Made by a program: the position numbers and the translations under genes. From Candidatus Altiarchaeota archaeon (GTDB taxonomy: Archaea; Altiarchaeota; Altiarchaeia; IMC4; SCGC-AAA252-I15), in the NCBI GenBank assembly GCA_043813075.1, contig JBDRLL010000012.1:1-57532 (forward strand): a DNA stretch of 57,532 nucleotides, given 5' to 3'. This document shows, in pieces, positions 28,124-54,300 of the stretch (the first letter of the stretch is position 1; each line of letters begins with the position of its first letter). Under the pieces are notes generated by a model that saw nothing but the letters and a program-made list of their open reading frames with translations, was not told where the DNA came from and searched no databases.

Positions 28124-28331
28124 AGTATATCATATCCAGTCTAATACTAAATAGGGGATTGACACTAAACAACACCCTATTTTTTTATCTAATGGAAAAA
28201 AATGGTGTCATAGAGGGTGTAATGCTATCAGACTCGTGCAATAACATGCACTTACTACGGTAAACCTAAAAATAGAGGCTCTATCTAACCCCCCTGATTT
28301 AAGCAAAAAAGGTTCTAATCCAAGGGGGTCT

Positions 28332-28405
28332 CGGGCTCGACGGGGTTCGAACCCGCGGCATCTCGGTTAAAAGCCGAGCGCTCTGCCGGACTGAGCTACG
28401 AGCCC
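28332..28405 (-). tRNA. tRNA-Lys (anticodon UUU), intronless, CCA not encoded
   Basis: Reverse complement GGGCTCGTAGCTCAGTCCGGCAGAGCGCTCGGCTTTTAACCGAGATGCCGCGGGTTCGAACCCCGTCGAGCCCG folds as a cloverleaf; TTT anticodon; TTCGAAC T-loop; TTTATAAA box upstream. Confidence 0.97.
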
Positions 28406-28435
28406 ATATAGTATGGGGCTGCTGGTTTATAAATA

Positions 28436-52029: not shown

Positions 52030-52248
52030 ATGAATGACATAACACTACAGCTCGGTAAGAATGGTGTTACCCCGAACTTCTTGGATGAAGCCAGATCCAT
52101 GCTGGAAAAACATAAGAAAGTCAGGATCAGGATATTGAAGTCTGCGTTTTCAGGCGGTGACCGGAAACGGATATTCACGGAAATAACGGGGAGGATAGCG
52201 TCTAAGAGCGCTGGTATAAGGGGGAATGTGATAACTCTTGAACTATGA
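52030..52248 (+). CDS. YhbY/CRM RNA-binding protein
   Basis: QLGKNG.T, L..H..V+I+, IRGN motifs. Confidence 0.88.
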   Translation: MNDITLQLGKNGVTPNFLDEARSMLEKHKKVRIRILKSAFSGGDRKRIFTEITGRIASKSAGIRGNVITLEL

Positions 52249-52511
52249 AATCAGAGTCAGAGATAAAGGCTAAATTGGAGAAGTATTTTAAGAACGCTGA
52301 AAAACTCTTTGATGGAGTGAGAGTGGATGACAGCACTCGGATAGATGTTAAAAGAGCGGGTGAGGGCATACTTGAATCGGCGTCAAATTACTATAGTGAT
52401 GCTATGCACTTCTACGAGAACGGGGAGTATTTTAACGCTTTAGCCGCCCTAGAATATGCTGAAGGCTGGCTCGATGCTGGAAAGAGCATCGGTTTGCTGA
52501 CTAAAGACTAA
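52245..52511 (+). CDS. DUF357 domain protein
   Basis: A..Y..DA.HF...G....A.....YA.GWLDA. Confidence 0.9.
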   Translation: MKSESEIKAKLEKYFKNAEKLFDGVRVDDSTRIDVKRAGEGILESASNYYSDAMHFYENGEYFNALAALEYAEGWLDAGKSIGLLTKD

Positions 52512-52676
52512 AGGACTATCAATAAAAACACCATGAACAGTATGCAGGAGAGGTAGAACTCCACCACTTCCACATGATTGATACTTGAAGCCGTCTGTTC
52601 CATATTAGATATCTGTCTGGGGGCTTAATAAGTCAGAGAGTATTTAACCGCCATGGTATTTTAGAGATACTACTAT

Positions 52677-52698
52677 CTTTTTATATGATGACATCATA
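52677..52698 (+). promoter_or_regulatory. TATA-like box overlapped by a perfect palindrome
   Basis: CTTTTTATAT merges into TATGATG-A-CATCATA (52684-52698), about 30 nt upstream of the structured region. Confidence 0.5.
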
Positions 52699-52716
52699 AT
52701 ATGTAATACAAGATAA

Positions 52717-52907
52717 GTGCGGGGTAATCAGATAATTACCTGAAAGGCATTCCATAGAAGGCGGATATAGGACGCCAAAAATCCAATCTCGGTTGGATAC
52801 TCTCAGGAGTGATGTGATGTCAAAAAACCATCATGCTCAGGCAAGGTGGTAAGGGTAATACCCTCTTCGGAGGATGGGCCTAAAAACCCTATCTGACCCT
52901 ATAGCAC
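52717..52907 (+). ncRNA. Putative structured non-coding RNA of unknown family
   Basis: Nested long-range stems plus local hairpins including a C(UUCG)G tetraloop; no ORF; strand inferred from the tetraloop, G-U pairs and the upstream TATA-like box. Confidence 0.55.
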
Positions 52908-52920
52908 CATCAGACTATTT

Positions 52921-54300
52921 CTAGGAAATGCCATTATCAGGAATCTTATTTGTGATGTTGTTTGAGACATACCTAATAAAAGCGTCAGCAGTCTCGGAAA
53001 ACTCTATCCTAGACCGTATTCCAGCCATTCTCCTCAGGATATAACTTGGCCGATAGTAGAATCTCCTATGGGCTTCCAAGTCCACCTCGTATAGTTCACT
53101 GAATGAAAGGCCTTTTGGCACATAATAAAGGTCTTTTACCATTCCGGACATGTAGTCCCTCCACAAATCGTCTGTGGCATATCCCTCAGATAAGGCAGTC
53201 TTGAATAACCGTGTGCCCGGCATTAACTCTGGTAGGCTGAACACCCCATATTCAGGGTCAAGTTCGATTATGAAGCGTAAGGTATCCCGCATCTGGTGAA
53301 TATTCTCGCCTGGAAAGCCGAACATCGCGGATGAGCCTGTCTTAACCCCTATCTTACGGCAATACCTGAATGCATGGCGTATCTCATCATTAGTTATCCT
53401 CTTGCCAGAGTTGAATCTAATCTCCTCGACACCCGACTCTACGCCAAAATATATGAGGAAACACCCGGAATCCTTCATCCTAGAGAGGATGTCATCATCA
53501 ACACAATCAACCCTCGTTAGGCAAGTCCATTTTAGGTTAAGTCTCTCCCGGTCCATCATGTCGCATAGCCCGTACACCCAGTCCTTGTCCAGGGTGAAGA
53601 CACTGTCTGAAAAATCCACTCTACGCACGCCATACTCGTCCCTAAGCAATCTCATTTCATCGAGAACATTTTCACCACACCTATGCCTGACGGTGCAGTG
53701 GGGGTCTGCACAGAATATGCAGTTGAAGGGACATCCCCTCGATGCCATGAGCGTCTTGAAAAGATACTTCCGCATATCCAGCAGATGCCATGCAGGATTA
53801 GGCAGCCCATCCAATCCATCAACGAAGACGGGTTCCGAATAGGTAGTTGAGCCTCCGTCGTTCAACACTAGGCCACCAACTTCGTCAAGTCCTGCATTCC
53901 CAGTTATCAAGTGCTCGCAAAGCCTCAAGAAGGCGTAATCCCCTTCGCCGCGTATCCCATATTCAACACCCATGTCTGAGACAACCTCCGGGACCTCGGT
54001 CACATGCGAACCCCCAAGCACTATCGGGATGTCAAACCGTGATTTGATCAATGCCACTATCAAATACGCTTCTGGAAGCGCGGAGGTCAGGACGTTCACA
54101 CCTATGACCCTAGGCTTCTCGCACTCGATGACTTCAAAAAGTTTTTTAGAGTCAAAACCGACGACGTCAAAATCAAGTATGCGAACGCTAAAACCATTTT
54201 TCTCTAACACCGACGCCATATACGCGAGTCCAAGTGGGCTGTAAGTCCTACCACCGAGGATTATCCTATGCGGCGGATATACTAATAGAACGTCAGACAT
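52921..54300 (-). CDS. B12-binding (class B-like) radical SAM protein
   Basis: PLGLAY, GGSHVT, GEG, SRGCPFNCIFC, GVESG. Confidence 0.93.
   Translation of the reverse strand: MSDVLLVYPPHRIILGGRTYSPLGLAYMASVLEKNGFSVRILDFDVVGFDSKKLFEVIECEKPRVIGVNVLTSALPEAYLIVALIKSRFDIPIVLGGSHVTEVPEVVSDMGVEYGIRGEGDYAFLRLCEHLITGNAGLDEVGGLVLNDGGSTTYSEPVFVDGLDGLPNPAWHLLDMRKYLFKTLMASRGCPFNCIFCADPHCTVRHRCGENVLDEMRLLRDEYGVRRVDFSDSVFTLDKDWVYGLCDMMDRERLNLKWTCLTRVDCVDDDILSRMKDSGCFLIYFGVESGVEEIRFNSGKRITNDEIRHAFRYCRKIGVKTGSSAMFGFPGENIHQMRDTLRFIIELDPEYGVFSLPELMPGTRLFKTALSEGYATDDLWRDYMSGMVKDLYYVPKGLSFSELYEVDLEAHRRFYYRPSYILRRMAGIRSRIEFSETADAFIRYVSNNITNKIPDNGIS

Follow-up and report, generated by a model that had tools for sequence, protein, structure and literature searches.

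The window analysed here is a 57,532-nt stretch of the genome of an uncultured groundwater Candidatus Altiarchaeota archaeon (G000; 1.8 Mb, 41 contigs, 89% complete). Positions 52717-52907 of its plus strand hold a structured RNA, which lies in a 409-nt spacer. The spacer is bordered upstream by a DUF357 gene (52245-52511, plus strand), itself preceded by a CRM (CRS1_YhbY) gene (52030-52248), and downstream by the stop codon of a convergent gene for a B12-binding radical-SAM protein (52921-54300, minus strand). The neighbouring genes have an archaeal character. An initial annotation, made from the sequence without database searches, had placed the RNA near the CRM gene; the gene was confirmed, but it did not adjoin the RNA at the other loci scanned. 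As that annotation had stated, no ORF of at least 40 aa was found on either strand of 52512-52920, and the RNA was GC-richer than the DNA upstream of it (0.466 for 52717-52907 and 0.356 for the upstream spacer, 52512-52716; 0.49 for the whole window). The proposal that the RNA has a promoter of its own was borne out by an archaeal TATA-like box, TTTTTATAT (52678-52686, plus strand; core TTTATAT at 52680-52686), which ends 30 nt before G52717 and is the predicted promoter of the RNA; a TTTATAT(A)-type box stood at a similar upstream distance in all single or first homologue copies. A short T-rich tract, CTATTTCT (52915-52922, plus strand), runs into the stop codon of the convergent radical-SAM gene and may be an oligo-T terminator. 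T-runs after the RNA were clearer in most homologues.

Minimum free energy folding of 52717-52907 (plus strand) gave -63.8 kcal/mol, whereas 200 dinucleotide-shuffled sequences averaged -48.8 ± 4.3 (z -3.52; one of the 200 folded equally well), and the opposite strand folded more weakly (z -2.05). Together with compensatory changes in homologues (described below), this leaves almost no doubt that the ~190-nt multi-stem RNA first proposed from the sequence is a real structured RNA. Interior helices were assigned from folding and comparison (all coordinates on the plus strand). P2 pairs UCAGAUA (52728-52734) with UAUCUGA (52890-52896) and had changes on both sides in 6 of 7 pairs. P2b pairs AUUACCU (52735-52741) with GGGUAAU (52853-52859); its duplex formed between the same two segments, with differing letters, in all 22 sequences compared, and each of its eight pairs had changed on both sides. 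P2 stacks on P2b, and between them on the 3' side lie two hairpins: P5 (CCUC-UUCG-GAGG, 52862-52873; changes on both sides in 7/7 pairs) and P6 (GGG-CCUAAAAA-CCC, 52876-52889), which has an A-rich loop and support from folding and comparison. The junction beyond P2b carries P4 and the P3 domain. P4 is a hairpin (ACCAUC..UGC-UCAG-GCA..GGUGGU, 52827-52850) supported by folding and comparison. In the P3 domain (52746-52821), a comparatively supported stem, GGCAUU-C-CAU / AUG-U-GAUGUC, contains a conserved C-U mismatch and closes the four-way junction from which three hairpins extend: P3a (52760-52776; UAUAGG in its loop), P3b (52781-52798) and P3c (52799-52810). The domain contains the most conserved internal letters, GGAGUGAUGUGAUGUC.

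This fold retained most of the stems first drawn for the RNA. The terminal pairings GTGC/GCAC and GGGG..TCAGATA/TATCTGA-CCCT were supported both by the minimum free energy structure and by comparison. TTACC had been given the wrong partner (GGTAA at 52848; AUUACCU at 52735-52741 pairs instead with GGGUAAU at 52853-52859), and CCTGA..GCAT/ATGC-TCAGG gave way to pairing of GGCAUU (52746-52751) with GAUGUC (52816-52821), with UGC/GCA as a local hairpin. Five of the six local hairpins proposed were kept (GGCG/CGCC, ATCCAAT/GTTGGAT, ACTC/GAGT, CCTC-TTCG-GAGG and GGG/CCC); the letters of the sixth, TGATG/CATCA, form part of helices P3 and P4.

The whole window was searched against Rfam 15 at gathering thresholds, and the only match was a tRNA at 28332-28405, on which ARAGORN agreed; neither program found a tRNA or rRNA at or around 52400-53200. 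With E up to 10, Rfam returned five sub-threshold C/D snoRNA matches in 52400-53200, none of which spans the RNA (10.9-26.9 bits, where the gathering scores are 40-63; most lie in the promoter region); they were attributed to an ATGATGA there. At four loci, three of them with tandem copies, a search with E up to 1 gave only an unrelated sR51 match outside the RNA. The initial annotation had been unable to assign the RNA to SRP RNA, RNase P RNA, a tRNA or a riboswitch, and these searches are in keeping with that: no family matched, and no strong Rfam hit undercuts its novelty. An identity as SRP, RNase P or 5S RNA was rejected on the lack of a family match and on the presence of all three elsewhere in the genome, namely SRP RNA at C41:48533-48811 (150.2 bits), RNase P RNA at C6:73061-73344 (65.3 bits; full length, below its gathering score of 84) and 5S rRNA at C33:50458-50573 (71.2 bits). 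A box C/D sRNA (RUGAUGA/CUGA kink-turn termini, ~50-70 nt) was rejected given the sub-threshold matches only and the 176 nt of the RNA; the one CUGA at 52893-52896 is Watson-Crick paired and covarying. A tRNA or rRNA intron was rejected in the lack of exons, each flank being a 10-nt stem strand between the promoter and the convergent gene. The genome (89% complete) yielded no TROVE protein, and a Y-RNA/Ro identity was dropped on that ground. No description of the RNA was found in the literature, with supplements and subscription journals outside the scope of the search.

Homologues were collected by DNA search, which found look-alikes in 8 of 41 related genomes, and with two covariance models. 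The first (R1), built from 11 sequences, had matches in 16 of the family's 21 genomes (5/5 high-quality genomes, 10/11 genera) and in two further families of the order. For the second (R2), the sequences were folded one by one, and the P2b, P3a and inner P4 helices seen in this way were included. With E up to 0.1, R2 matched 20 of 61 genomes of the phylum, one of them through a 17.9-bit match in coding-like DNA; the credible matches lay in 19/61 Altiarchaeota genomes (G000, 15/20 of family f1, 2/2 of f3 and 1/1 of f4), so that the RNA is distributed over three families, and R2 did not find it in the other 42. None of the 22 genomes of family f5 gave a credible match, even with laxer filters; two weak matches there (17.9 and 15.4 bits) both read like coding DNA and were discounted as homologues. 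There was likewise no credible match in f2, f6, f7, f8 or f9. Genomes carried one or two copies. The second copy in G000 (C41:34451-34620) is shorter and without P4, and tandem pairs of two diverged copies, 6-21 nt apart, occurred in one genus and on one metagenome contig. The downstream copy of these pairs has no TATA box of its own and would thus need endonucleolytic release. Exact-pattern scans of genome contigs returned 11 stretches, seven archaeal and four bacterial, the bacterial four misfitting the RNA model; scans of metagenomes returned nine, five of which fit the model and four of which do not, and scans of viral contigs returned four, none of which fits.

Covariation was assessed against shuffled alignments; the alignments were fitted to the RNA model, and related sequences inflate such tests. 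With 22 sequences and 69 pairs, 85.4% of cells were paired vs 73.8% after shuffling (0/500 shuffles as high), and 53 of the 69 pairs had changed on both sides. With 31 distinct sequences and 68 pairs, 89.2% were paired vs 73.7% shuffled and 34-45% slid (again 0/500), and compensatory changes were present in 54 of the 68 modelled pairs. The per-helix counts of changes on both sides (P2b 8/8, P5 7/7) lend unambiguous support to the predicted fold despite the fitted alignments.

The termini of the RNA have a form that the initial annotation overlooked. A bulge-helix-bulge (BHB) motif consists of a 4-bp helix flanked by two 3-nt bulges on opposite strands, as described in the portions of PMC4090602 and PMC4731332 consulted. 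Here the central helix H pairs GGGG (52721-52724) with CCCU (52897-52900), and the bulges are UAA (52725-52727) on the 5' side and AUA (52901-52903; with the 3' strand of H, 52897-52903) on the 3' side. The flanking helices are both present and covarying: the inner helix h' is P2 (UCAGAUA/UAUCUGA), and the outer helix h pairs GUGC (52717-52720) with GCAC (52904-52907). The 5' strand of h with 52721-52726 would be a vestigial 5' 'exon', and its 3' strand a vestigial 3' 'exon'. Outer helix h carried compensatory versions in homologues (GCGC/GCGC, AGGC/GCCU, AAGC/GCUU) and was lengthened in many members by complementary leader and trailer letters. All cells of H were paired in 30 sequences (4/4 by fixed position in 29/30), and the 5' bulge had 3 nt in 30/30 complete sequences. 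H with four pairs and two 3-nt bulges was present in 29 of 30 complete distinct members, the exception being a downstream copy with a 3-nt insertion in one genome, and a strictly canonical motif (inner helix 4/4, outer at least 3/4) in 25 of 30. Judged by pairing and conservation, the terminal stems are a canonical BHB motif that is conserved across the RNA family.

The same genome was searched for the splicing enzymes and for a reference substrate. EndA is present in one copy (PF01974, 110.9 bits; C3:54759-55019, in a 179-aa frame) and RtcB at C9:11894-13180 (PF01139, 583.9 bits). An EndA with a single subunit of ~180 aa is of the homotetrameric type. This type would fit the strict conservation of the canonical BHB in the RNA family. 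In the part of PMC5829648 available, only heterotetrameric and epsilon-2 endonucleases cut non-canonical motifs. ARAGORN in intron mode made 14 intron calls, of which the four with introns of at most 60 nt were inspected. Among these four, only tRNA-Ser(UGA) on contig C11 had an unambiguous canonical BHB (intron at the canonical 37/38 position; H CUUG/CGAG; bulges AG|U and GU|A); tRNA-Phe departed from it by a single mismatch in H, and the remaining two gave no unambiguous reading. The tRNA-Ser(UGA) intron implies a cut after the second bulge nucleotide on both strands. Applied to the RNA, this rule gives UA|A and AU|A, with predicted cuts at A52726/A52727 and U52902/A52903, and hence a circle of 52727-52902, whose closure is the junction found in RNA data.

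RNA data came from a groundwater metatranscriptome (X1), which contained 20% of the words sampled from an 801-nt query. A single contig fell on 52400-53200 (206 letters, depth 57.6, 0 mismatches). Its letters 1-26 match 52877-52902 and its letters 27-203 match 52727-52903, so that U52902 is joined directly to A52727; as 52903 is likewise A, the junction is ambiguous by 1 nt. The length of 206 equals 176 + 30, which is expected for a 176-nt circle recovered as a k=31 unitig, whose first and last k-1 letters repeat. This evidence is one assembled contig from one run of one study, with letters 1-203 placed; the shorter side of the junction (26 letters) is below the 31 set for a bridging record, and no joint was scored automatically. 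No X1 contig lay on 52400-52726 or 52904-53200, and two further runs of the same study (X2, X3) gave no contig on the stretch, neither of which is evidence of absence. The contig sits exactly on the RNA, and with the covariation and the conserved TATA box it upholds the earlier view of an independently transcribed structured ncRNA. From the permutation and length of the contig, the RNA probably matures as an excised and ligated 176-nt circle (52727-52902, plus strand), which, like the BHB, had escaped the first reading. Folded as a circle (ViennaRNA), it retained all helices at -48.9 kcal/mol (z -3.5 vs 200 mononucleotide shuffles).

Flanking genes were scanned with Pfam in 67 of 76 flanking ORFs; the nine left out include three of the window's own locus, which were scanned separately. 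No neighbour was conserved across all genera. DUF357, an Ssb-like OB protein and PEP synthase recurred in some genera only, in the order DUF357, RNA, Ssb-like OB-fold protein, PEP synthase in G000 and some related genera. Another genus had the order glycosyltransferase, RNA, CTP synthase, and in one genome the RNA pair lay in the opposite orientation to its neighbours. The scan showed no mobile-element genes near the RNA loci. The OB-fold protein was considered as a partner of the RNA and rejected, its presence not tracking the RNA across genomes: homologues occurred in 50 of 61 genomes, some of them without the RNA, and strong orthologues were missing from some RNA-bearing genomes.

Taken together, the locus is probably a stand-alone structured ncRNA gene whose product is excised at a BHB and circularised. 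An ordinary linear structured sRNA, with its terminal stem (P1) serving only to close the molecule and the permuted contig arising as an assembly or reverse-transcription artefact or as a minor by-product, would account for a junction seen in one contig of one run, with a shorter side of 26 letters and no joint scored, and stable linear RNAs often have terminal stems. That junction nevertheless falls at the predicted endonuclease sites in both bulges, not at transcript ends, and the contig has the length of the circle plus k-1. A closing stem would not require a 4-bp helix and two 3-nt bulges to be kept in 29/30 members, and the downstream tandem copies lack a promoter; a linear product is unlikely. 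The short flanks, with 'exons' of just ~10 nt each, could also mark an orphan or selfish BHB intron, the relic of a decayed tRNA or rRNA host gene, which is still excised and circularised as archaeal introns are (PMC4731332 and PMC3326292, in the portions consulted) and leaves a functionless circle. Against such a relic stand eleven internal helices with compensatory changes, loops that are invariant across three families, and a dedicated conserved promoter; the RNA occupies syntenic positions without mobile-element genes nearby, and none of the four pattern matches in viral contigs fits the model. This origin is accordingly judged less likely still than a linear sRNA.

Two further readings concern what the RNA is related to and on what it acts. 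Linear covariance models miss permuted genes, and the permuted SRP RNA of Thermoproteus is restored by BHB circularisation (PMC4731332, as far as available), so a divergent or circularly permuted form of a known housekeeping RNA might pass unrecognised here. Against this, the SRP (150.2 bits), RNase P (65.3) and 5S (71.2) RNAs all lie elsewhere in the genome, no local Rfam match with E up to 10 spans the RNA, and none was found with E up to 1 on the tandem loci, which show the permuted order; such a disguise is very improbable. The least probable of the readings, with only a slight chance of being right, is that the RNA acts in cis on the OB-fold and PEP synthase genes downstream, as their leader or riboswitch. 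It draws on the co-directional order of RNA, OB-fold gene and PEP synthase in several genomes, with gaps of ~90-140 nt. In the window, however, the convergent radical-SAM gene intervenes; the RNA pair is inverted in one genome, and the neighbours in another genus are the glycosyltransferase and CTP synthase. T-runs follow the RNA, and the RNA-library contig is confined to it and permuted.

For the favoured circular ncRNA, the following route is proposed. Transcription from its own TATA promoter would yield a short precursor, the ends of which would pair as the canonical BHB, a step supported by sequence and comparison. EndA would then cut after the second nucleotide of each bulge, and RtcB would join U52902 to A52727 to give the 176-nt circle; the junction is that of the RNA-library contig, and the parts assigned to the two enzymes, cleavage by EndA and ligation by RtcB, are presumed, both genes being present in the genome. 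The circle folds into ~11 helices, as covariation supports: a P2-P2b rod carries P5 and P6 and ends in a junction where P4 and the cloverleaf-like P3 domain branch off. Ligation would bring CCCUAU together with A52727 as a 7-nt loop capping P2, and this loop, CCCUAUA, may kiss the UAUAGG loop of P3a, a contact that would be possible only after excision.

The two loops were compared across the family. The P3a loop carries (U)AUAGG(G), the complement of the junction loop, and at least five contiguous complementary letters were present in 20 of 30 sequences (mean complementarity 4.83 vs 3.40 ± 0.14 for shuffled loops). Covariation between the loops was absent, with 76.5% of cells paired vs 75.0% after shuffling (58/500 shuffles as high) and one change on both sides, and both loops are nearly invariant. 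Because there is complementarity without covariation, the contact is put forward as a hypothesis only. An extension of it, in which the RNA founds a new archaeal class of circular RNA whose active fold is gated by topology, the junction loop that docks onto the P3a loop existing only after ligation, and which is a ribozyme or the core of an RNP specific to one Altiarchaeota branch, is speculative and rather doubtful.

The proposed gene was compared with known systems, each of which is described here from the part of the cited source available. The closest is the SRP RNA of Thermoproteus tenax (Plagens et al. 2015, PMC4731332), which likewise has a stand-alone gene with its own TATA box and a BHB formed by leader and trailer; there the splicing endonuclease sets the ends and the functional product is circular, the same route as is proposed here. 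That RNA is permuted and has known protein partners, whereas the Altiarchaeota RNA has neither a family match nor a sign of permutation. Unlike in Thermoproteus tenax, the Altiarchaeota genome has a normal SRP RNA elsewhere, and processing is deduced from sequence and one contig. The RNA also resembles the tRNA-Trp intron with a box C/D sRNA (PMC4090602), in which the useful RNA is the BHB-excised piece with a canonical 4-bp helix and two 3-nt bulges; it differs in having no host tRNA or rRNA, flanks of ~10 nt, 176 nt with 11 helices and no C/D guide. A BHB processing stem beside the circularisation site is shared with circular pre-16S and pre-23S rRNAs and with the permuted 23S rRNA of Thermococcales (PMC7758197; bioRxiv 10.64898/2026.03.23.713588). 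These RNAs are excised and ligated by the tRNA-splicing machinery (PMC7758197; bioRxiv 10.64898/2026.03.23.713588); they are ribosomal and mostly transient intermediates, in contrast to a small independent gene without rRNA similarity. Archaeal circular ncRNAs without an assigned role were also described in Sulfolobus by circRNA-seq (Danan et al., PMC3326292); those described in the consulted part of that paper are 31-70 nt long, with no BHB or comparative structure reported there.

The BHB route itself has precedents in tRNA and rRNA introns, in circular pre-rRNAs and in the permuted Thermoproteus SRP RNA (PMC4731332, within the part consulted). The apparent novelty lies in a gene family dedicated to producing, by this route, a complex circular ncRNA that belongs to no described family, and in its occurrence in a non-thermophilic lineage. 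Stand-alone genes that yield only a BHB-excised circular RNA are very rare, with the permuted Thermoproteus SRP RNA as the clear precedent, and the same route appears to yield a complex 11-helix RNA that is kept in three families of a subsurface phylum of ecological importance. If this holds, it would add a new structured RNA family in Archaea, a domain poor in orphan large ncRNAs, and would mean that the tRNA-splicing machinery makes dedicated circular ncRNAs outside hyperthermophiles. It would also give work on endogenous RNA circularisation, whether study or engineering, a compact natural scaffold; expression systems for circRNA that use the BHB are under construction (bioRxiv 10.64898/2026.10.12.758436, as described in the part available).

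With no partner that tracks the RNA and no TROVE/Ro protein, its function was considered solely from its form: compact, rich in tetraloops, conserved, with invariant junction letters and, if circular, exonuclease-proof. Most plausibly, it would act in trans within a lineage-specific ribonucleoprotein, as an exonuclease-resistant scaffold or as the catalytic RNA; it appears to be neither a regulatory leader nor a processing by-product. Its expression may be controlled. The promoter region was unusually conserved in homologues, with the TATA box followed by a palindrome (ATGAT..ATCAT) and then TAATAC, and this conservation hints at regulation. In the window, the promoter-proximal block (52685-52709, plus strand) consists of the palindrome ATGATGACATCAT followed by AATATGTAATAC; it was conserved in the upstream sequences of several genera and may be a regulator site or a leader.

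Tandem pairs of diverged copies of the RNA were found in homologue loci L022 (1501-1923), L023 (1501-1909), L025 (1277-1699) and L064 (197-530). Within a pair, 6-21 nt separate the two copies and only the upstream one is preceded by a TATA box, an arrangement which implies that each pair would be transcribed as a single precursor giving two different circles. Compared with L025, the pair in L023 is flipped with respect to the OB and DUF357 genes on either side of it. A diverged paralogue of 170 nt is also present in the genome holding the window (contig C41, 34451-34620; locus L039, 1501-1670). Its bulge-helix-bulge (BHB) motif is intact, but it has no P4 hairpin and the P3a loop complement is mostly absent. 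Genes for a 91-aa OB-fold protein and a glycogen-debranching enzyme neighbour this paralogue.

The 30 nt separating the TATA box from the RNA are kept across genera (window 52685-52709; L003, L024, L039, L059, L066 and other loci). This block contains the palindrome ATGAT-N3/4-ATCAT and, after it, AATATGTAATAC. It could serve as a conserved leader or as the binding site of a transcription factor, and it is the cause of spurious C/D snoRNA matches near the RNA. Upstream, the CRS1_YhbY (CRM) and DUF357 genes (window 52030-52511) overlap by 4 nt (52245-52248), and these shared nucleotides suggest translational coupling. DUF357 adjoins the RNA in two other genomes as well (L023, L025).

Within the window, the sole Rfam or ARAGORN match was tRNA-Lys(UUU) (28331-28406, minus strand; called by both). 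Elsewhere in the same genome, tRNA-Ser(UGA) (contig C11, 40509-40614) is interrupted at the canonical 37/38 position by an intron of 21 nt, whose BHB motif is of textbook form with CUUG/CGAG as the central 4-bp helix. ARAGORN in intron mode proposed 13 further intron-bearing tRNAs, several of which have introns of implausible length (up to 1439 nt) and are probably false. The genome's RNase P RNA (contig C6, 73061-73344) was aligned across the full Rfam archaeal model, but its 65.3 bits fall short of the gathering score of 84, and it would therefore be overlooked by standard annotation.
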